A DNA stretch of 64,000 nt from an uncultured bacterium (lineage in GTDB: Bacteria; Actinomycetota; Acidimicrobiia; Spongiisociales; UBA5794). Each line of letters starts with the position of its first letter. Position 1 is the first letter of the stretch. The notes under the pieces were generated by a model. That model had not been told where the DNA came from. It saw nothing but the letters and a program-made list of their open reading frames with translations, and searched no databases. This document shows, piece by piece, positions 1 through 8,975 of the stretch. The position numbers and the translations under genes were made by a program. Location of the stretch: positions 416,001 to 480,000 of the forward strand of contig CAWDDT010000005.1 in assembly GCA_963801165.1 (NCBI GenBank). The letters are read 5' to 3'.

Positions 1-53
1 TCGAGGCCCATCATCCCCGTGCCAATCACGCCGTAGCGGATCTTGTCCGTCAT
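1..53 (-). CDS. 5' end of a Gfo/Idh/MocA-family NAD-binding oxidoreductase, running off the left edge (possibly an NAD+-dependent sulfoquinovosidase)
   Basis: Reverse complement reads MTDKIRYGVIGTGMMGL, a Rossmann GxGxxG start, with an AAGGAG RBS just upstream. Not in the ORF track because it is truncated. Confidence 0.7.
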   Translation of the reverse strand, partial: MTDKIRYGVIGTGMMGL

Positions 54-82
54 CACTGTCTCCTTGTGCTCGGCCCGAGCAC

Positions 83-1105
83 CTAGTCAGGAATGCCGAG
101 ATACTTGTTGGTCGTCGCCACGGCCTCGGCACCGGTGGCGTGCATTTCCATCGCGGCGCGGACCGCGTCGATCGTCTCGGGGATCGTCACCGACTCCTGT
201 GGGATGTTGATCCCCCACACGACGTCATCGCCGGAGAGACCCACCATCTCTTCCCACAAGCCGATCTCATACATATCGGCCCGTGGGTACTCCATGTACC
301 GCGCCCACTGGAACAGCGAGGCGTTCGAGTTGAAGCCGTCGGCGATCCGGACGACCTTGATGCGCGGGTAGGCCTTGAACGCTTCGAGAGCTCGGTCTAC
401 CGAGATCTTCGCCTTCGGCGTCGCACACAAAGTGATGATGTGTCCGTGGGTGACCGGGGTGTGGATCAAGAGGCCGGTGGCGTCGACACCCTCCATGATG
501 TTCGACAGGTCGACGGCCTGGTGGTTGGGGATCGGCTCCACCTGGAGCACGTTGGTGAGACCACGGTGCGTATCGCCCGGGTCGGCGACACGGCGGATGA
601 TCGTGATGAATACCTTCTCGACCCCCACAGCCTTGTGGATGGCGTCGACGGCGCGGATCAAGCCGGTGGTGTTACACGAGGTCAGCTTGAGGTAGTCCTT
701 ACCGAGACCCTTCTCGTAGTTGACGGTTCCGTGGAAGAACACATCTGCGACAGATCCTGCTTCGCCGCCCTGGAAGACGGCCTTGACGCCCGCGGCGACA
801 TACTTCTCCTTGTTTTTCGCACCGATCCCGCCGGGGGCGGCGTCGAGCATCACATCGACCTCACCGAGGAGATCGTCGAAGTTCCCCGAGACCGGGATAC
901 CCGCTGCTTCCAGCGCCTTTTCGGCACCGTCCATCGCGGTGAACAGCTTGTAGGGCATACCGCGCGCCGCGAGCGCACGCACCGGCAGCGTTGGAGCGAC
1001 ATCGGCCACACCGACCAACTCCATGTCCTCTTGCCGGGCAACGCCGGCGGCGAGCCGGTTGCCGATCACTCCATACCCGGCAACGCCGACCTTCACCTTG
1101 CTCAT
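83..1105 (-). CDS. Type II (archaeal-like) phosphorylating glyceraldehyde-3-phosphate dehydrogenase family protein
   Basis: GYGVIG Rossmann motif, catalytic SCNTTG, RRVADP and C-terminal QESVTIPETIDA match class II GAPDH rather than bacterial GapA. Confidence 0.88.
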   Translation of the reverse strand: MSKVKVGVAGYGVIGNRLAAGVARQEDMELVGVADVAPTLPVRALAARGMPYKLFTAMDGAEKALEAAGIPVSGNFDDLLGEVDVMLDAAPGGIGAKNKEKYVAAGVKAVFQGGEAGSVADVFFHGTVNYEKGLGKDYLKLTSCNTTGLIRAVDAIHKAVGVEKVFITIIRRVADPGDTHRGLTNVLQVEPIPNHQAVDLSNIMEGVDATGLLIHTPVTHGHIITLCATPKAKISVDRALEAFKAYPRIKVVRIADGFNSNASLFQWARYMEYPRADMYEIGLWEEMVGLSGDDVVWGINIPQESVTIPETIDAVRAAMEMHATGAEAVATTNKYLGIPD

Positions 1106-1118
1106 TGCTGTCTCCTCT

Positions 1119-2531
1119 CTATAGATCGATAACGGGGATACCCCAGCGAGCCGCCAGGGCTTCTAGCTCCTCGCGATAGTCGCCGTACACGATTCCGAAG
1201 TGGTGTTCCAGGCCTTCTCTGGCGATGGTCGCGACGATCTCGGGTGCGGGCACGTCGAACTCGACAACGCCTGCAGTTCCCGAGAATGCAAGCGGTTCTT
1301 CGAGCATCGTACCGCCCCCTATGACCAGCGACTGCATCCCTCCTGCCTGGCTCAGCCGGCAGATCGTCACCCTGCCGGGACGCAGGGCGAACTCATTGAG
1401 CAGGGGCAGCTTCCGGTTCGAGTGAATCGTGCCGACCGCGGAACCGTCGTCAGGCGCCATGTGCATCGGGGCGAGCCCGCAGTGCCACATCACACCCGTC
1501 CTGCCCACGATGTCCATCTCCACCAGATCTGCGACAAAGGCAGGCTCGCCTGCGATGTACTGGAGCAACAGAGCAGTTACGTTTCCATAGACGTCGGCCT
1601 CGCAGGTTCCCGGCGTCCCATCGTCGATGAGCATGCTCTGTGGCGAGCAGGCGGCGCCGCCGAACTCGGTGAAGCACTCAGGCCAGCATCTCGTGGCGAC
1701 ACCGGCCCAGGACCGCTCGTCGATCATCTTCTTCAGCCCGCCGTAGAGGCTCAGCGACCTGCCGAGCGACATCTGGTCGAGGCCGTCGAGATCGCCGAGC
1801 GAGGATTCGGCGCGCCTCCTGGTCGCCGCGATGGTCTCGGCAGGTGTTGCGGCCGCCGCGGCGAACATGTCGGCGAGCTGGCTGCGTTCCACCGTCACCC
1901 CGGTCACCGCGGCAAGCGTCCCCGCGTCGTAGCCGCAGGGGTCGAAGCCGGTTGGCCGATCACCGATGACCCCGATCGTCGTCTCCGCCAGACGGGCGGC
2001 AACACCCGCCGCGGTTGTGGCGGCCGCTGCTGTCGTCTCCCGCGCCGGTCTTCTGCGGCTGGCTTCCTGCGTGATGCCCCGGGAGAGAATCTGCTCGATG
2101 TCGGCAACGGCGCCGGGATCGTCTGCGGCGCGGTGAACGTAGGCGAAGCTGCTCGCCGCCCGCACGAGAGCGAACGCGGCCAGGTTCAACCCGCAGAACG
2201 AGTTGAGCCTCAGCCTCCCTCCGGTCCTGGCCTCGGGGAAAGACCAGATGATGATCGGCGTCTCGAACCTCGCCCCGATTGCCTCGGTCATCGACGAGTC
2301 GGTGAACGAAACCTGGAGCAGCAGCAACGCATCGAGGTCGCCGTCGCTGAATTGCTCTAGTGCCAATTCGGTGCTGGCGGCGTCGAAAAGCAGGTCCGTC
2401 GTCCCGATCAACTCGGCATCGAGACCACCCAGGGTCGCCAGCGCCGCGGCCGCTACCTCTTCTGCGTACGGAACGTCGAACGTGGGGCGGGCAAGCGCCA
2501 GCACGCCGAGTCGTCTCCGGGACCGGGTCAT
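1119..2531 (-). CDS. sqvD: L-fucose-isomerase-like protein, probable sulfoquinovose isomerase (SqvD/SftI type)
   Basis: Motifs RPTFD, GGRLRLNS, RCWPE, CEADVYG, WHCG, HSNRK, FSGT and HFGIVYGD resemble Bacillus SqvD as I recall it. Start moved to ATG 2531 (MTRSRRR); the longer ORF overlaps the transaldolase. Confidence 0.75.
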   Translation of the reverse strand: MTRSRRRLGVLALARPTFDVPYAEEVAAAALATLGGLDAELIGTTDLLFDAASTELALEQFSDGDLDALLLLQVSFTDSSMTEAIGARFETPIIIWSFPEARTGGRLRLNSFCGLNLAAFALVRAASSFAYVHRAADDPGAVADIEQILSRGITQEASRRRPARETTAAAATTAAGVAARLAETTIGVIGDRPTGFDPCGYDAGTLAAVTGVTVERSQLADMFAAAAATPAETIAATRRRAESSLGDLDGLDQMSLGRSLSLYGGLKKMIDERSWAGVATRCWPECFTEFGGAACSPQSMLIDDGTPGTCEADVYGNVTALLLQYIAGEPAFVADLVEMDIVGRTGVMWHCGLAPMHMAPDDGSAVGTIHSNRKLPLLNEFALRPGRVTICRLSQAGGMQSLVIGGGTMLEEPLAFSGTAGVVEFDVPAPEIVATIAREGLEHHFGIVYGDYREELEALAARWGIPVIDL

Positions 2532-2535
2532 GGCA

Positions 2536-3198
2536 CTACTCGTAGGGGGTCTCGTCCCAGAATGACTGGAACTTGGCGAGACCCACGTCGGTGTAGGGAT
2601 GGGCGAACGCATCCTGGAAGACAGGCATCCCTGCGGTGACGATGTCGGCACCGACCACGGCGGAGTTGACTATCTGCCTGGCGTTGCGGGCTGCCGCAAC
2701 GATAATCTCGGTCTCGAAGCCGTATACGTCGCGGATCGCCGCCACTTCGTCGACGAAGTGGGTGATCTCCTCACCGTTGCTCTCCTTCCAACCGATGAAC
2801 GGGGAGACGAACGCCGCCCCCATCCGCATCGCCTGGAGGGCTTGGGCCGCTGAGAAGACCAGGGTGAGATTCGAACGGATGCCCTGGTCGGCAAGCTCGA
2901 AGACTGCCTTGAACCCGGGCTCGGTTGCGGGCAGCTTGATGACGAAGTTGGGTGACATGGCGGAGAGCTTCTTCCCCTCGGCGACCATCGTCTTCCAATC
3001 ATCGAGGTGAGGGTTGACCTCCACCGAGATCGGCTTGTCGGTGCCGTCGAAGATGGTGGCGATCTCGTTGATCACCTTGAGGAACGGCTTGCCCGACACC
3101 TGGACGTGACGGGGGTTGGTCGTGACGCCGTCGATATTCCACATCTCGAGGGCGTACTCGATGTCATCGGTCTTGGCACTGTCGAGGAAAAACTTCAC
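2536..3198 (-). CDS. sqvA: Small transaldolase/FSA family protein, probable 6-deoxy-6-sulfofructose transaldolase (SqvA/SftT)
   Basis: FLDSA, DGVTTNPRH, Schiff-base Lys in VIKLP, SPFIGWKE and AARN. The NPRH Arg, GWKE Trp and RN Arg differ from ordinary TalC/FSA (NPSL, GR.DD) and match the sulfonate-binding Arg-Trp-Arg set of SqvA as recalled. Confidence 0.82.
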   Translation of the reverse strand: MKFFLDSAKTDDIEYALEMWNIDGVTTNPRHVQVSGKPFLKVINEIATIFDGTDKPISVEVNPHLDDWKTMVAEGKKLSAMSPNFVIKLPATEPGFKAVFELADQGIRSNLTLVFSAAQALQAMRMGAAFVSPFIGWKESNGEEITHFVDEVAAIRDVYGFETEIIVAAARNARQIVNSAVVGADIVTAGMPVFQDAFAHPYTDVGLAKFQSFWDETPYE

Positions 3199-3207
3199 GT
3201 TTTGCTC

Positions 3208-4140
3208 CTAACTTGTCGTGAGAGTCTGTAGAACGTTGGCAACCGTCACCTCGCTGACGCGGGTGTTCGATTCGGCGGTGAGGCCGGCGATATGGGGGGT
3301 GAGGACGATGTTGTCGAGCCCGGCGAACTTCAGGGCGCCCTCCTCGGTCAGCGGCTCCTCCTCGAATACGTCGAGCGCCGCCCCCGCGAGATGACCCCGG
3401 CGGACGGCATCGGCGAGGGCTACATCGTCGACGACCCCACCCCGGGACGTGTTGATGACCACAGCAGCGGGTGCCAGCCACGCCAGTGCGGCGGCATCGA
3501 GGATGTGCCGGGTATCGGCGGTGAGCGGGACGTGAATGCTCACTGCGTCGCGGCCGGTGAGCAACGACTTCACCGTGTCGTATCTCGTGATCCCCTGCCA
3601 GACAGGGTCGTCGGCAGCTAGGAAGGGGTCGTATGCGGAGACCGTCATGCCGAGGGCGGTCGCCCGCTCGGCGACGAGCCGAGCGATTTCGCCGAAGCCG
3701 ACGAGAGCCAGGCTCTTGCCCGCTGTCTCCCTGCCCTGGAGGTCCGCCCGTGGCCATGATCCACTCAGCATCCGCACCTTCGAGGCATACGCACCCCGAA
3801 ACAACATGAGAAGGGCGGCGATGACGTACTCGGCAACGGCGACGGCGTTGGCTCCGGTGGCCGGATGGACAGCTACCCCACGCCGGGCACAAGCGTCCAG
3901 ATCGATGTTGTCGAGACCGACGCCGAGCCGGCCGACGACACGCAAGCGCGGGGCAGCATCAAGCAGCTCCTCGTCGACCCTGGTTCGGTTGCGAACGATG
4001 ATCGCCTCGGCTTCGGCGAGCTCGGATAGCAACCGGGATCGGTCATCTACGAGGCCGGGATCGAAAGAAAGACTGAACTTTCCCTGCAACGGCTCGAGAG
4101 CATCTCGGCTCATGAATTCGGATACGACTATCTGTGACAT
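3208..4140 (-). CDS. slcC: D-isomer-specific 2-hydroxyacid dehydrogenase, (S)-sulfolactate dehydrogenase SlcC-like
   Basis: N-terminal IVVSEFM, DPGLVDD, IVRNRT, GRLGVGLDNID, PATGANA and TPHIAGLT.ESN.RVS as in the SlcC subfamily; 310 aa with no SerA ACT domain. Confidence 0.7.
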   Translation of the reverse strand: MSQIVVSEFMSRDALEPLQGKFSLSFDPGLVDDRSRLLSELAEAEAIIVRNRTRVDEELLDAAPRLRVVGRLGVGLDNIDLDACARRGVAVHPATGANAVAVAEYVIAALLMLFRGAYASKVRMLSGSWPRADLQGRETAGKSLALVGFGEIARLVAERATALGMTVSAYDPFLAADDPVWQGITRYDTVKSLLTGRDAVSIHVPLTADTRHILDAAALAWLAPAAVVINTSRGGVVDDVALADAVRRGHLAGAALDVFEEEPLTEEGALKFAGLDNIVLTPHIAGLTAESNTRVSEVTVANVLQTLTTS

Positions 4141-4176
4141 CGAGAAACCTCACTGATCTCAACTTAGACTACTACT

Positions 4177-4188
4177 GGAACCGGTTCC
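4177..4188. promoter_or_regulatory. Candidate LacI-family operator
   Basis: Perfect palindrome GGAACCGGTTCC with central CG between the divergent operons; a related half-site TGGAAACGCG lies near 4279-4288. Confidence 0.55.
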
Positions 4189-4323
4189 GTTTTTCAACCG
4201 GAAATCTACGGCAGCTCTCGTCCTCTGGCAGTACATGGATGGACGTGACTTTGAGACAGCGAGGGTCGTCGTTATTGTTGGAAACGCGTCGGCGCTCGGC
4301 CGGCGCTCAAGGAGGAGGACTCC

Positions 4324-5733
4324 ATGAAGCAACTCAAGTGGTTGCTGCTGGTAGTTGTGTTTGCCATGCTCGCTGCGGCGTGCGGCAACGACAGCTCTGG
4401 GGACACAACGACGGCAGCTCCATCGAATACAACTGCGGCGGCTACAACGACAACTGCAGGCAGTACAGAAACCACAATGGCCGAGACCACGACCACCGCA
4501 GGAATGGTCGATCTCACCGGCACCAAGGTGACGGTGTTTGGTCCCGAAGAGACCGCGGCTGAGGCAGGATCGCTGCAGGCGACCCTCGATCTCTTCGCCG
4601 CACAAACCGGCATAGAGATCGTCTACACCGGTGCTCGCGACGCGTCGGATCAGATCAACGCACAGGTAGCCGGCGGCAACCCGCCGGACATCTTCGTGTT
4701 CCCGCAGCCAGGCAAACTGGCCGACTTCGCCCGGCAGGGTGCTCTGTACCCGCTGCCTGACGATGTGCTGGCAACGGTCGCGGCAAACCAGAGTGATGCG
4801 TGGACTTCGTTCGGCAACGTCGACGGTGTCCAGTACGGCATCCCGACCAAGGCCGACCTCAAGTCGCTCGTCTGGTATCAGCCGGCGCGTTTCGCAGCCG
4901 CCGGCTACACGATCCCGCAGACGTGGGACGAGCTCAAGGCCCTCAGCAACCAGATGATCGCCGACGGCAACACGCCGTGGTGTGTCGGCATCGAGTCCGG
5001 CGCCGCCACCGGGTGGCCGTTCACGGACTGGGTCGAGGATCTGATGCTCCGTTACTACGGGCCCGATGTCTACGACCAGTGGGTCTCGCACGAAGTTCCG
5101 TTCTCGGACCAGCGCGTCATCGACGTGTTCAATCAGATCAGGGACCTCTGGGATACCCCCGGAGCGGTATATGCAGCAGGCGGTTCCATCGCTTCCACCG
5201 CTTTTGGTGACAACGGCGAGCCGCTCGTCAACGGCGACTGCTTCATGCACCGCCAGGCGTCGTTCTTCTCGGCCTTCTTCCCGGATGGGACCCCGGTCGC
5301 CGACGGTAGTGATGGCGCAGTTGACGTCTTCTACTTCCCGGCTGTTGATCCGAACACCCACCCGGTGCTTGGTGCCGGTACGTTGGTCGGTGCGTTCCGC
5401 GACGCTCCCGAGGTGTGGGCAGTGATGAACTACTTCGCCACCTCGGAGTACGGTCAGAACCGGCAGAAGCTGCAGGCACTCTCTAAGGGTGGCGGCGGCG
5501 CACTGTCCGGCTTCCTGTCGCCGGCAACGCAGCAGGACATGAGCGTGTACAACCCGCTCGAGCAGTCGTTCCTCGACATTCTGGCGAGTGCGGATGTTGT
5601 CCGATTCGACGGATCCGACCTGATGCCGACAGCCGTCGGCTCGGGCGCCTTCTGGACCGAAGGAACCAGCTTCATCAATGGCCAGGAGGACGCTGCAGCA
5701 GCAACCGCGGCCATCGATGCGGCGTGGCCGTAA
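4324..5733 (+). CDS. Carbohydrate ABC transporter substrate-binding lipoprotein (AglE/GgtB alpha-glucoside type)
   Basis: GGAGG RBS, lipobox LAAAC, Thr-rich linker, PQPG, KSLVWY, WCVGIESGAATGWP.TDWVED, HRQASF and FDGSDLMP. Confidence 0.9.
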   Translation: MKQLKWLLLVVVFAMLAAACGNDSSGDTTTAAPSNTTAAATTTTAGSTETTMAETTTTAGMVDLTGTKVTVFGPEETAAEAGSLQATLDLFAAQTGIEIVYTGARDASDQINAQVAGGNPPDIFVFPQPGKLADFARQGALYPLPDDVLATVAANQSDAWTSFGNVDGVQYGIPTKADLKSLVWYQPARFAAAGYTIPQTWDELKALSNQMIADGNTPWCVGIESGAATGWPFTDWVEDLMLRYYGPDVYDQWVSHEVPFSDQRVIDVFNQIRDLWDTPGAVYAAGGSIASTAFGDNGEPLVNGDCFMHRQASFFSAFFPDGTPVADGSDGAVDVFYFPAVDPNTHPVLGAGTLVGAFRDAPEVWAVMNYFATSEYGQNRQKLQALSKGGGGALSGFLSPATQQDMSVYNPLEQSFLDILASADVVRFDGSDLMPTAVGSGAFWTEGTSFINGQEDAAAATAAIDAAWP

Positions 5734-5895: not shown

Positions 5896-8004
5896 ATGGA
5901 TCGAGTATTCGCAACATTGATCAGCATCGTGGCCGCGGTCGGCGGTAGCGCGGGGCTGTTCGTCGGAGCCAACAAGCTCTTTGACCTGGCACGAAGCCGG
6001 TACCCGGTCTTTAGCTCCATGATTGGAGCGCTGCTCGGCTTCAGTACCGGGCTCTTGATGTGGGCCAACCGTGTTTCCATAGTGGGCCACGGGCCGCTGG
6101 TCGGTGCCCCGAACCCAACCGGGTTCGTCGCAGCCGTCGACTTCGTGGTGACGCTGGTTGCCAACACCATCGTGCCGACGCTCATCGGTCTGGCCGGGGG
6201 CTGGCTGTACGCCAGGGTGAGCGGGTCGGCCGTCACCTCGACCCAGTACCAGCTCGGTGACCGTGAGGCCGAAGATACGCCCACGACGATGTCGGACAGT
6301 GTCCGGAGGAATCGGTTGCTGGTGGCCATGGCCACCACCGGACTGCTGGGGCTGTGGTTTGCGCTCTTCTACGAGCTGGCCCTGGTGCCGGCGTTCGAGA
6401 TCGGCAAACTCATCATCTGGACGGTTATCGGGCTGGCCATTGCCGCGGCACTCTGGTACACGGGTAAGCGGAGATCGCCGCTCGGAGCCTCACTCGCCCT
6501 CGGCGGAGGCCTCGGTTGGCTCATCGGCACGATGGTCGCCCCCCAACTGGGGGACTTCAAACGGGTGCTGTCTATTGCCGGCATGGATCTAGACGGTGAC
6601 CAGATCTGGACAATTCTGGCGATGGTGATCGGCTTCGTTGCCGTCGGTGCATACATCGGCCTCAAGCCCGTCGCCAGATATCCAACGAGAGACAGAATCG
6701 CCCGGAATTCGCGCGTGTACATATTCCTCGGCCCGGCGCTGCTATTCATCTTCGCCTCGCTGATGCTGCCTGCGTTGCGCACCATCTGGCTGTCGTTCCT
6801 TGGTCCCGACGCGACGCTGCCGCCCACCGAGCGTGCCGCCGGTGGCGTTGACAAGCTTGTCGGGTTGACCAACTACAAGGACGTGTTCAGCGACCCGAAC
6901 AACTGGAATCTGAGCAACTGGTCCGACATCTTTGGCAGTACGCTGTTCTGGGGCGCGATCATCCTGATCGTAGGCGGGGTCATAGCCGGTATCGTGCTGG
7001 GTCGGCAGCGCGGGATGTCGTTCGAGAAATCAGGCGGCTCGCTGGCCCCGATCTCAATCGGTGCGTTCCTGCTGCTCACCTCCCTGTTCGCCGCATTGCG
7101 GGGAACCGTGTTCAACAACCTGTGGTGGGTGGTTGCGGTCACCACCCTGGCAAGCGTGTTCGGTTTGGCAGTCGCCGTGCTGGCGGACAGGGCCAAAATG
7201 GAGAACATCGCCAAATCGCTGATCTTCATGCCGATGGCGATCTCGTTTGTCGGCGCCGGCATCATATGGCGGTTCGTCTACAACGCCAGGGAAGTTCGTC
7301 AGGATCAGACGGGTGTGCTGAATGCCATCTGGGTCGCTCTTGGCCAGCTGTCAAACAGCGGTTGGCCCAAGGTCCTAGCGGCATTGCTGCTTGCAGCCGT
7401 CATCGCAGGCCTGGGTTACATGAGCTGGCGGGGTTATAAGGCAGGGGCGACCGGGCTTTTCGCCGGCTCGCTGGTAACGGCGCTGCCGTTCCTGTACATC
7501 CTGGTACGGCTCCTCACCAACGGTATCGGCGGGTTCTCGGTAGCCGACGACGGCACGATACTCAAAGAGACGATCCTCGTTCGTGAGTCCAGCCCGTACA
7601 ACAACCTGTTCCTGATGGTGGTCCTGATCTGGATCCAGACCGGATTCACGATGGTCATCTTCTCGGCAGCGATCAAGGCGGTCCCCTCTGATCTGATCGA
7701 AGCGTCGAAGGTTGACGGCGCTACCGAGTCGCAGACGTTCTGGCGGGTCACCATCCCGCAGATCGCACCGACGATCGGCGTGGTGATAACAACGCTGATC
7801 GTGTTGGTGATGAAGGTCTTCGACATCGTCAAGGTCATGACAAACGGGAACTTCGACACCCAGGTACTAGCCAACGCCATGTTCACAACCGCCTTCACGA
7901 ACTTCAACTTCGGTAAAGGTTCGGCGCTGGCGGTGCTGATCCTCCTATCGGTGCTCCCGGTGATGATCTTGAACATACGCCGCATGCAGAAGGAGGCCCG
8001 CTGA
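5896..8004 (+). CDS. Sugar ABC transporter permease (AglF-like), enlarged with extra TM segments
   Basis: IFMPMAISFVGAGIIWRF, WIQTGF and EAA loop (EASKVDGA); 702 aa. Confidence 0.88.
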   Translation: MDRVFATLISIVAAVGGSAGLFVGANKLFDLARSRYPVFSSMIGALLGFSTGLLMWANRVSIVGHGPLVGAPNPTGFVAAVDFVVTLVANTIVPTLIGLAGGWLYARVSGSAVTSTQYQLGDREAEDTPTTMSDSVRRNRLLVAMATTGLLGLWFALFYELALVPAFEIGKLIIWTVIGLAIAAALWYTGKRRSPLGASLALGGGLGWLIGTMVAPQLGDFKRVLSIAGMDLDGDQIWTILAMVIGFVAVGAYIGLKPVARYPTRDRIARNSRVYIFLGPALLFIFASLMLPALRTIWLSFLGPDATLPPTERAAGGVDKLVGLTNYKDVFSDPNNWNLSNWSDIFGSTLFWGAIILIVGGVIAGIVLGRQRGMSFEKSGGSLAPISIGAFLLLTSLFAALRGTVFNNLWWVVAVTTLASVFGLAVAVLADRAKMENIAKSLIFMPMAISFVGAGIIWRFVYNAREVRQDQTGVLNAIWVALGQLSNSGWPKVLAALLLAAVIAGLGYMSWRGYKAGATGLFAGSLVTALPFLYILVRLLTNGIGGFSVADDGTILKETILVRESSPYNNLFLMVVLIWIQTGFTMVIFSAAIKAVPSDLIEASKVDGATESQTFWRVTIPQIAPTIGVVITTLIVLVMKVFDIVKVMTNGNFDTQVLANAMFTTAFTNFNFGKGSALAVLILLSVLPVMILNIRRMQKEAR

Positions 8005-8975
8005 TGACCGCAGTCGACGGACGCGCCATGGCCGAGAGGGCGGCAAGCTCCGAGGGTGGCGTCGGGAAACGGATCTACCGCTTCCTGAAGGCAATCCCCA
8101 CGTGGGTCCTTTGGATGCTGGTCATCCTGTGGACCATCCCCAGCTTGGGCCTGCTTGTCAACAGCTTCAGGCCCCGCGACGCCCAAAGGGCGACCGGCTG
8201 GTGGACCACGTTCACCGGCCACGGCGGCGGGTTGACCCTGGCCAACTACAAGGAGGTGCTGAGCGCAGGAGCGACGGGTGGTCTTGGGCAAGCGTTGCTC
8301 AACTCGATGGCGATCGCGATCCCTGCGACCATCATCCCGATTGCAGTAGCGGCCTTCGCCGCATACGCATTCGCCTGGATCGACTTCCGGGGGCGGGAGT
8401 GGCTGTTCATCGCAACGGTCGCCTTGATGTCGATCCCGCTCCAGGTGGCGCTGATCCCGCTGCTCACCACCTACTCGGGCGGTGCGCACTGGACAATCCC
8501 GCTGCTTCACCGAACGCTGACGTTCTTCCCCGACTTCTCCTTATCGGGGACGGTGACGGCAGTGTGGTTGACGCACACCGGATTCGCCTTACCGTTCGCC
8601 ATCTTCCTGCTGCACAACTACATATCCGGCCTACCGGCAGATGTGTTCGAGTCGGCGCGGATCGATGGCGCTGATCACTACAGGATCTTCTGGAGTCTCG
8701 TAGTCCCGCTGTCGGTTCCCGTGCTTGCGGCGTTTGCGATCTTCCAGTTCCTCTGGACTTGGAACGACTACCTGATCGCCTTGACGATGATCGGAGGTAA
8801 TGGCCCAGCCTTCCCGATAACGGTCAAGATCGCCTCGCAGGCGGGCTCGTTCGGTCAGAACGAGCACTTGCTGACGGCGGGTGCGTTCGTCTCGACCGTG
8901 GTACCGCTGGTGGTGTTCTTCTCGCTGCAGCGATACTTCGTCAGAGGGATCCTGGCCGGGTCGGTCAAGGGATAG
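8004..8975 (+). CDS. Sugar ABC transporter permease (AglG-like)
   Basis: AAYAFAW, ESARIDGA, QFLWTWND and LQRYFVRGILAGSVKG; 1-nt overlap with the upstream stop. Confidence 0.9.
   Translation: MTAVDGRAMAERAASSEGGVGKRIYRFLKAIPTWVLWMLVILWTIPSLGLLVNSFRPRDAQRATGWWTTFTGHGGGLTLANYKEVLSAGATGGLGQALLNSMAIAIPATIIPIAVAAFAAYAFAWIDFRGREWLFIATVALMSIPLQVALIPLLTTYSGGAHWTIPLLHRTLTFFPDFSLSGTVTAVWLTHTGFALPFAIFLLHNYISGLPADVFESARIDGADHYRIFWSLVVPLSVPVLAAFAIFQFLWTWNDYLIALTMIGGNGPAFPITVKIASQAGSFGQNEHLLTAGAFVSTVVPLVVFFSLQRYFVRGILAGSVKG

Follow-up and report, generated by a model that had tools for sequence, protein, structure and literature searches.

Sulfoquinovose (SQ) is produced on a gigaton scale. To our knowledge, in all described routes sulfolactaldehyde (SLA) is oxidised by enzymes of the aldehyde dehydrogenase (ALDH) type and the energy of the thioester is discarded; ALDH-type enzymes hydrolyse this intermediate, and no energy is conserved. 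The described SLA dehydrogenases belong to PF00171, according to the available part of 10.1101/2023.03.13.532361. In the available sections of PMC11659671, energy conservation from sulfonated aldehydes is described only via CoA thioesters: SqwD with SqwKL, which act on sulfoacetaldehyde, and the 3-sulfopropionaldehyde system of Enterococcus gilvus each combine a CoA-acylating dehydrogenase with an ADP-forming CoA ligase. Here we describe a type II glyceraldehyde-3-phosphate dehydrogenase (GAPDH II) encoded in an SQ operon of an uncultured bacterium of the Acidimicrobiia. The gene lies at the edge of a 64,000-nt stretch of DNA, the window (G000:C5:416001-480000, that is, contig C5 of genome G000, GenBank assembly GCA_963801165.1); negative positions below lie to its left, and the genome comprises 4.55 Mb in 13 contigs at 64% G+C. 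We propose, with moderate confidence, that GAPDH II is a phosphorylating SLA dehydrogenase which, together with an archaeal-type phosphoglycerate kinase (PGK) termed PGK2, would give sulfolactate and ATP. The underlying idea, that the sulfonated fragment of SQ drives substrate-level phosphorylation, is the same as in the SqwD/SqwKL and E. gilvus systems; these, as far as the same sections go, use a CoA carrier and C2 or deoxy-C3 sulfonates, whereas the route proposed here would use a phosphate carrier, GAPDH- and PGK-type enzymes, and SLA. With the ALDH-type SLA dehydrogenases (GabD/SlaB/SftD) the enzyme shares its cluster slot and its proposed net step, SLA to sulfolactate with NAD+, but its fold and family are unrelated to theirs.

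Two other described systems resemble parts of the locus. The sulfo-TAL (SFT) pathway of Bacillus aryabhattai / B. megaterium (SftI, SftT, SftD) has in common with it an isomerase-like gene and an orthologue of 6-deoxy-6-sulfofructose transaldolase (SF-TAL); unlike that pathway, the window operon has a distant SftI-like isomerase, no SftD, SqgA as sulfoquinovosidase, an ABC transporter and a fused, full sulfolactate-to-sulfite branch. The SlcC/ComC-SuyAB system of Chromohalobacter salexigens and of the tandem pathway of Paracoccus wurundjeri likewise includes a ComC-like Ldh_2 dehydrogenase, a SAF-domain SuyA and a UxaA-type SuyB, and the sulfolactate-to-sulfite sequence of the operon is as described for it in the available text of PMC12421959. 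It differs in that the first dehydrogenase of the window is PGDH-like and in that the whole branch stands in one operon with sulfoglycolysis. In P. wurundjeri, too, the SLA dehydrogenase is given as unidentified in that text (PMC12421959).

A type II GAPDH inside an SQ operon

Open reading frames (ORFs) of the operon were picked by codon-position G+C and annotated with Pfam, NCBIfam and PDB sequence searches. GAPDH II is a 340-aa ORF on the minus strand (83-1105); the plus strand of the same interval is likewise stop-free, without a usable protein. In profile searches it scored 375.2 bits against NF003251, 'type II glyceraldehyde-3-phosphate dehydrogenase' (cut-off 185), and 287 bits against TIGR01546 (cut-off 232.9). 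PF02800 and a weak PF01113 were the only Pfam domains in the protein, and the PF00171 aldehyde dehydrogenase domain was not found by this search; GAPDH II is not a member of the ALDH-type SLA dehydrogenase family, though it may work like one. Below an E-value of 1e-20 its solved relatives are only four archaeal GAPDH structures (2czc, 1cf2, 2yyy and 1b7g; 210-241 bits). Its closest homologues, at 72-92% identity, come, where named, from Acidimicrobiia, Ilumatobacter and Actinomycetota. A haloarchaeal host, which the 64% G+C might suggest, was considered and rejected in view of these names and of a bacterial gap-pgk pair in the genome. The window enzyme is an archaeal-type GAPDH carried by a bacterium: curated hidden Markov models and whole-length alignment place it in one family with the archaeal type II GAPDHs of Methanothermus fervidus (1CF2) and Pyrococcus horikoshii (2CZC), from which it differs in being bacterial, accessory, embedded in catabolic operons instead of serving gluconeogenesis, and in its predicted substrate.

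The gene is the fourth of one tight eight-gene operon on the minus strand, with spacers of 9-116 nt and with no terminator-like or minus-strand promoter-like site within window positions 1-4140. In order of transcription the operon encodes a PGDH-like dehydrogenase, SF-TAL, an SQ-isomerase-like protein, GAPDH II, SqgA, SuyA, SuyB and a ComC-like dehydrogenase. The sequence-only reading had placed a class II GAPDH immediately after the SQ-isomerase-like gene; this placement is correct, with a 13-nt spacer, and is far beyond chance. Together these genes cover the steps from SQ glycoside through SQ and sulfofructose to SLA, and from sulfolactate through sulfopyruvate and (R)-sulfolactate to pyruvate and sulfite, so that SLA to sulfolactate is the sole step of the operon without a conventional enzyme. 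None of the 12 PF00171 matches that a profile search found in the genome lies on the 666-kb contig C5, and no beta-hydroxyacid-type SLA reductase is among the annotated operon genes.

Based on this arrangement, the following sequence of reactions is predicted. SqgA would free SQ from its glycoside, the isomerase would convert SQ to sulfofructose, and SF-TAL would move the C3 unit of sulfofructose onto glyceraldehyde 3-phosphate (GAP) with release of SLA. GAPDH II would then form a thioester on Cys144, reduce NAD+ (as its Asp35 signature suggests) and, by phosphorolysis, yield 3-sulfolactyl phosphate, whose phosphate the unlinked PGK2 would pass to ADP to give (S)-sulfolactate and ATP. The PGDH-like and ComC-like dehydrogenases would invert sulfolactate via sulfopyruvate, and SuyAB would release sulfite and pyruvate.

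The arrangement is conserved. A scan of species-representative genomes with GAPDH returned 79 loci, 15 of which carry the SQ genes in identical order. A metagenome scan from the transaldolase side returned 80 loci, 17 of them with a transaldolase of at least 80% identity; GAPDH II follows the isomerase in 9 of these 17, and the other 8 contigs stop no more than 1,594 nt past the transaldolase, so that the position cannot be displayed.

The remaining operon genes were assigned as follows. The PGDH-like D-2-hydroxyacid dehydrogenase, the first gene (3208-4140, minus; PF02826, 168 bits; PF00389, 95 bits), scores 277 bits against the PGDH model TIGR01327, below its cut-off of 454, and is kept in related clusters; we infer that it is an (S)-sulfolactate dehydrogenase with an SlcC-like role. 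SF-TAL (2536-3198, minus; 220 aa; PF00923, 138.6 bits) matches 8bc3, 'BmSF-TAL', with 265.7 bits, compared with 156.6 bits for the best ordinary transaldolase. The SftI-related SQ-isomerase-like gene (1119-2651, minus) has a fucose-isomerase C-terminal domain (PF02952, 27 bits) and reaches 254.6 bits against the SftI model NF048012, below its cut-off of 700. Alignments with relatives begin only at residue 42-47 of the 510-aa ORF, which probably puts the true start near 2525. Relatives at 50-55% identity adjoin SqgA in sulfo-EMP2-like clusters, and the context with SqgA and SF-TAL supports the role as SQ isomerase. An RNA run (0.05 of sampled words) gave one identical 256-nt contig inside this gene (2045-2300) and two 35-nt fragments, and is uninformative on the GAPDH II gene or on co-transcription.

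Downstream of GAPDH II, the gene for SqgA, an NAD+-dependent sulfoquinovosidase (-1026 to 56, minus; gene end at G000:C5:414975), starts 26 nt past the GAPDH II stop, and window positions 1-56 hold its first 18 codons. The 360-aa protein matches 8qc3 with 340 bits and 8qc2 with 326 bits (the next unrelated chain has 90 bits); these structures are ArSqgA and FlSqgA, the former being the Arthrobacter NAD+-dependent sulfoquinovosidase (PMC10755693). It is followed on the minus strand by a SuyA-like ORF with a SAF domain (about -1409 to -1143), by UxaA-type SuyB (-2602 to -1421), close relatives of which were named '(2R)-sulfolactate sulfo-lyase subunit beta' by JGI, and by the ComC-like Ldh_2 dehydrogenase (-3607 to -2612; NF040650, 182 bits, below cut-off). 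Just left of the operon lies a complete AmmeMemoRadiSam system (G000:C5:408498-411742; L006 12498-15742), consisting of a radical SAM enzyme, a Memo-like protein B and an AMMECR1 protein A with a long N-terminal extension.

On the other side, the intergenic interval 4141-4323 is a divergent promoter region between the catabolic operon and ABC transporter genes on the plus strand; it contains a perfect palindrome, GGAACCGGTTCC, at 4177-4188 and a plus-strand promoter-like site at 4251-4278. The sugar ABC substrate-binding protein (4324-5733; PF01547, 81 bits) stands beside the cluster at 55-81% identity in relatives and would serve uptake of SQ or SQ glycosides. The first ABC permease is a 702-aa ORF (5896-8004; PF00528, 41 bits), kept in related loci; its family match covers residues 530-692 only, which points to a mis-set start or a long N-terminal extension. 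The second permease (8004-8975) matches PF00528 with 65 bits and NF040932 with 124 bits, below the cut-off of the latter.

PGK2 and the distribution of the pair

The sequence-only reading had looked for a second pgk-like gene to the left of the window. None is present in 20 kb; an archaeal-type PGK, PGK2, lies instead on contig C7 (C7:74911-76092; PF00162, 350.9 bits), and its best solved relative is the archaeal PGK of Pyrococcus horikoshii, 2cun. It belongs to an operon Iso_dh-PGK2-TktN-TktC (G000:C7:73000-77213; L086 7000-11213), with no GAPDH between Iso_dh and PGK2, where relatives of this operon read Iso_dh-GAPDH II-PGK2. After the operon comes an ARMT1-like damage-control phosphatase gene, and upstream of the PGK2 operon a 1,339-aa protein is encoded (G000:C7:77899-81918) whose repeats are of the RCC1-like, cadherin-like, bacterial Ig, PKD and RTX types.

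A genome-wide search found a single type II GAPDH in G000, the window gene. A type I GAPDH (442 bits, cut-off 367) adjoins a PGK on contig C6. Because of this type I gap-pgk pair, and because GAPDH II of the clade type occurs in only 11 of 401 genomes sampled from the class, we regard GAPDH II as an accessory and not a housekeeping gene. In this class sample, with thresholds of at least 68% identity for GAPDH II and at least 61% for PGK2, PGK2 was found in the same 11 genomes and in 0 of the 390 others. The two genes are adjacent in 9 of the 11 and on different contigs in G000 and G372, which belong to the same genus. Among ten further genomes holding SQ-linked copies, PGK2 was found in nine; G410, whose completeness is not established, gave no match. 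The SQ-linked copy is the only GAPDH II type in seven of these further genomes (G401, G402, G403, G406, G407, G408 and G409), and both SQ-linked and PGK2-adjacent copies are present in G404 and G198. In G405, a GAPDH II remnant (C4:2569-4407; residues 2-123, 122 residues) lies 295 nt from an intact PGK2, and resembles a gene in decay; the SQ-linked copy is present in this genome as well. These data suggest that PGK2 is an obligate partner of GAPDH II.

The pair is also found in other contexts. A GAPDH ORF was called in 74 loci. SQ genes accompany it in 14 of them; in 48 the next gene downstream encodes a PGK (PF00162, 350 bits), and the remaining 12, mostly short contigs, show neither feature; no locus among the 74 has both the SQ genes and the PGK. 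The PGK-linked loci span Acidimicrobiia, Chloroflexota and Firmicutes. LarA-like genes (16 loci), split transketolases (12) and Iso_dh-family dehydrogenases (11) are often encoded beside them, as is a SAF plus UxaA-like pair. LarA-like and Iso_dh genes never occur in one locus. In a tree, the SQ-linked group is nested, with short branches, inside the PGK-linked sequences of the Acidimicrobiia. Probably the gene was duplicated into the SQ operon and the original copy was then lost several times, with PGK2 retained. A second, distant type II GAPDH-like lineage (36-37% identity to the window protein) is present in three other genomes of the class (G078:C93:9476-10480, G126:C14:2745-3749 and G100:C71:2353-3339).

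Other sulfoglycolysis-like clusters provide a further comparison. SqgA-linked clusters of the sulfo-EMP2 type in other genomes of the class encode a HacidDH, a PfkB kinase, a DeoC/LacD-type aldolase, an isomerase and SqgA, without GAPDH II; one of six, L091, has a GabD-type PF00171 enzyme beside SqgA, to which G000 has no close relative (best 39.5% identity). Three loci, L035, L079 and L077, carry PfkB-GAPDH II-PGK2-(DeoC)-isomerase, and the identity of their kinase (41-45%), aldolase (58-61%) and isomerase (54-55%) to the counterparts in the SqgA-linked clusters falls in the range that these clusters show among themselves. On a metagenome contig of 59% G+C, L119, GAPDH II (49% identity) and PGK2 (55%) lie upstream of SF-TAL (74%), on one strand with a GH4-type glycosidase and a LarA-like gene, and the His-Gln and HQGD motifs are as in the window clade. 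The glycosidase, of the NAD+/metal-dependent GH4 family (L119 8669-10087), directly follows SF-TAL and is a candidate third type of sulfoquinovosidase; two further L119 ORFs of no known family had no PDB match. The pair thus appears to have been recruited independently into sulfo-EMP2-like clusters and into one distant SF-TAL cluster. In L127, L134, L136 and L139 a PF00171-like gene stands directly upstream of TAL-SuyA-SuyB. ALDH and GAPDH II(-PGK2) alternate in one slot of otherwise similar clusters.

LarA-like genes directly follow SuyA-SuyB in the SF-TAL clusters L127, L130, L136, L159 and L176, and lie beside GAPDH II-PGK2 in L119, L028-L030 and L039; they are candidate nickel-pincer sulfolactate racemases in place of SlcC/ComC. 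Two sulfo-EMP2-like loci of Acidimicrobiia, L090 (G110:C2; 5774-17054) and L138, have a pyridoxal-phosphate-dependent PF00291 enzyme gene upstream of the PGDH-like gene and a SulP/STAS permease nearby, and this enzyme is a possible cysteate sulfo-lyase-type exit in place of SuyAB. A PF00291-like gene (39% identity to the L090/L138 enzyme by tblastn) also follows GAPDH II in L014/L094 of G372, in the genus of the window.

Specificity residues and competing substrates

Residues were surveyed in 71 clade sequences of GAPDH II and in 51 proteins of the PGK2 family. According to the available text of PMC12041015, Cys140 of M. fervidus GAPDH is catalytic, His219 is the base and Arg167/Arg168 bind the GAP phosphate; the second phosphate site consists of Ser139, Asn141, Arg167, His193 and His194, and archaeal Lys33 is linked to NADP+ use. 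In the clade, Ser143-Cys144-Asn145, His220/His222 and the GAP-phosphate site Arg171-Arg172 (equivalent to Arg167/Arg168) are kept in 71/71 sequences; the SCNTT motif of the catalytic Cys is likewise kept. At the second phosphate site His195 (= His193) is kept, and His194 is replaced by Gln196 in 71/71; SHHGPD of 1cf2 and 2czc aligns with NHQAVD of the window protein. The archaeal Lys33 ('SKT' or 'TKT') corresponds to Asp35, with Asp in 70 of the 71 and a mis-called ORF as the odd row. Since Asp35 replaces Lys33, GAPDH II is predicted to prefer NAD+. For PGK, the available part of PMC7729029 gives Arg65, Arg122 and Arg170 as ligands of the 3-phosphate. At the Arg65 position the PGK2 family has Asp (39), Gly (6) or Ser (6; n=51), whereas G000 PGK1 has Arg and archaeal 2cun has Lys; Arg38 and His62 are kept, and so are the equivalents of Arg122 and Arg170, these in 51/51. 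The loss of one phosphate-site ligand in each partner fits, without proving, a distal group other than a dianionic phosphate ester. SQ-specific residues were also sought in the SQ-linked copies and rejected as a feature: of 340 columns, one conservative group-specific position (V295), plus the C-terminal residue, separates them from PGK-linked GAPDH II. Because the two sets of copies are indistinguishable at the specificity sites, the enzyme is probably not SLA-exclusive; it is likelier to accept analogues of D-glyceraldehyde whose C3 substituent is monoanionic (sulfonate or carboxylate).

Several of these observations weigh against an SLA dehydrogenase. Apart from the near-identity of the two sets just mentioned, the SQ-linked branch is short and bears no mark of SLA specialisation; the catalytic Cys and His and both GAP-phosphate Arg are intact; both family models that the protein passes are 'equivalog' models for true GAPDH; and 48 of the 74 labelled loci are PGK-linked without SQ genes, many near transketolase, LarA-like, Iso_dh or inositol genes. 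PGK2 of G000 stands outside the SQ operon, behind an operator that it shares with inositol genes and not with the SQ promoter. Five of the six sulfo-EMP2-like clusters of the class sample have neither ALDH nor GAPDH II nearby, so a missing SLA dehydrogenase in a cluster is not by itself diagnostic. Furthermore, the compared genomes are related, and the counts are not independent events.

The main rival built on such points is plain GAP oxidation, which we consider improbable: GAPDH II would be an ordinary GAP dehydrogenase, forming with PGK2 a second NAD-linked branch of lower glycolysis that processes the triose phosphate from the non-sulfonated half of SQ or controls the GAP pool from which the transaldolase draws its acceptor, and an unlinked ALDH would oxidise SLA. 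Balancing of GAP for the transaldolase was also the alternative named by the sequence-only reading. The scores above the cut-offs of both equivalog models, the intact catalytic and Ps-site residues, the 12 PF00171 matches elsewhere in the genome and the five sister SQ clusters without a local SLA dehydrogenase all suit this explanation, as does the fact that transaldolase and transketolase, with both of which the pair is found, take GAP as acceptor. However, a type I gap-pgk pair is already present, and the housekeeping PGK would suffice for 1,3-bisphosphoglycerate, yet a separate PGK2 is kept even when unlinked; PGK2 lacks the Arg65 phosphate ligand in 51/51; and the LarA-like, Iso_dh and malic-enzyme neighbours, which are 2-hydroxyacid enzymes, would have no role if the product were 3-phosphoglycerate.

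A second rival takes the PGK-linked contexts as primary: the real substrate would be the aldehyde of a transketolase-dependent inositol or sugar-acid branch, for example D-malate semialdehyde, and the copy in the SQ operon would be relocated and have no role there. In Firmicute loci GAPDH II-PGK2 stands with IolD-, IolE- and IolG-like genes, or with UxaE, a TRAP transporter and malic enzyme; in L056 (1-11264), L080, L072 and L075, GAPDH II-PGK2-LarA-like-split transketolase forms one strand-run with such genes. These loci possibly encode an undescribed fermentation branch for inositol or uronates that depends on transketolase and yields ATP. In such a branch, transketolase would produce a C4 carboxylate aldehyde by cleaving a keto-sugar acid, for instance 5-dehydro-2-deoxy-D-gluconate; GAPDH II-PGK2 would oxidise this aldehyde, e.g. 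D-malate semialdehyde, to D-malate with formation of ATP; and D-malate would be racemised by the LarA-like enzyme and decarboxylated by malic enzyme, or be decarboxylated directly by Iso_dh. The mutual exclusion of LarA-like (16 loci) and Iso_dh (11 loci) genes is as expected for alternative fates of one D-2-hydroxyacid. The C4 aldehyde, OHC-CHOH-CH2-COO-, is isosteric with SLA, OHC-CHOH-CH2-SO3-, and a precedent for such kinship is found in the available part of 10.1101/2023.03.13.532361, where RlGabD, an SLA dehydrogenase of the ALDH type, shares 61% identity with the succinate semialdehyde dehydrogenase of E. coli. Searches of the open-access literature returned nothing relevant on a transketolase/LarA/D-malate route for inositol.

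The operators of G000 bear on the same question. The 12-mer palindrome TGGAACGTTCCA occurs in eight copies (C4:14953, C4:462662, C5:395873, C5:399596, C5:405297, C7:77225, C9:129810 and C11:103508), six of which mark promoters of the Iso_dh-PGK2-transketolase operon or of inositol-catabolism-like genes, the latter being an IolB/IolC/IolD/LacI cluster (the three C5 sites), an IolG-like gene (C4) and an IolE-like gene accompanied by an ABC transporter (C9). The set resembles an inositol regulon of the LacI type to which PGK2 and the split transketolase also belong, and this sharing of a site between the PGK2 operon and Iol-like genes favours the inositol explanation. An operator common to the SQ promoter and the PGK2 operon was considered and rejected; both have GGAAC/GTTCC inverted repeats, but with different spacing (TGGAACCGGTTCC versus TGGAACGTTCCA). 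Because TGGAACGTTCCA belongs to the inositol-type set of sites and its spacing is unlike that of TGGAACCGGTTCC, co-regulation of the SQ operon and PGK2 is not supported. On the other hand, only 13 nt separate the window gene from the isomerase gene and 26 nt from that of SqgA, an inositol-type operator is absent there, the position is kept in 15 genome and 9 metagenome loci, and G198 and G404 keep both an SQ-linked and a PGK2-linked copy, so that in these two genomes the SQ copy is an extra, retained paralogue. We therefore hold a purely inositol-related function to be decidedly improbable, more so than GAP oxidation; an enzyme of broad specificity with both functions would be consistent with it. 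Least probable of all is oxidation of SLA without energy conservation, in which the acyl-enzyme or the acyl phosphate is hydrolysed and PGK2 has no part in SQ catabolism: acyl phosphates are labile, PGK2 is encoded outside the operon and has a different operator, and one genome of ten with the SQ-linked copy (G410, with the caveat given above) lacks a PGK2 match, yet the co-occurrence of GAPDH II and PGK2 in the 401 genomes is perfect, PGK2 is kept in eight genomes that have SQ-linked GAPDH II only (G000 and the seven listed above), and it is adjacent in L119, L035, L077 and L079.

We thus return to a phosphorylating SLA dehydrogenase. This explanation is supported by the conserved operon position, the absence of an ALDH from an operon that nevertheless has sulfolactate consumers, the co-occurrence of PGK2, the altered anion sites in both partners and the independent recruitments. 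The support is wholly genomic; from it we predict the substrate, the acyl-phosphate intermediate and the yield of ATP. The sequence-only reading had suggested a GAPDH-like phosphorylating SLA dehydrogenase with ATP formed by a PGK-like kinase, and had named co-occurrence of the GAPDH clade with SQ genes as a check. The suggestion stands as the best-supported explanation, on comparative genomics, with the amendment that the kinase gene lies elsewhere; as to the check, the clade as a whole is not SQ-specific (48/74 loci PGK-linked without SQ genes).

Literature context and implications

The sequence-only reading also referred to a GAPDH-like SLA dehydrogenase reported from anaerobic gut Firmicutes. 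No such report was found in the open-access literature; what is in print, in the available sections of PMC11659671, are CoA-acylating dehydrogenases with ADP-forming ligases. Searches of open-access full text for a GAPDH-type SLA dehydrogenase, sulfolactyl phosphate or sulfolactyl-CoA returned nothing relevant, and the accessible text of a 2026 review (PMC12890257) mentions no such enzyme, with 0 occurrences of 'GAPDH' and of 'sulfolactyl'. For sulfoquinovose in Acidimicrobiia, no open-access paper mentioning sulfoquinovose was among the matches listed.

Based on the whole comparison we advance, more tentatively than the function of the window enzyme itself, a general model: bacteria may have acquired an archaeal GAPDH II-PGK pair in which one anion ligand was remodelled in each protein, giving a portable, lower-glycolysis-like module for substrate-level phosphorylation of non-phosphorylated D-glyceraldehyde analogues, SLA in one setting and a carboxylate aldehyde in another.

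If GAPDH II acts on SLA as proposed, the organism would gain one extra ATP per SQ. Sulfolactyl phosphate would be a new metabolite, the acyl-phosphate route a new way to conserve energy, and two textbook families of glycolytic enzymes would acquire a new job. It would offer a candidate for the SLA dehydrogenases that are missing in some pathways, one such gap being that in the available text of PMC12421959. More broadly, Acidimicrobiia, Chloroflexota and Firmicutes would carry an unrecognised accessory GAPDH/PGK pair that automated annotation has filed as housekeeping glycolysis.

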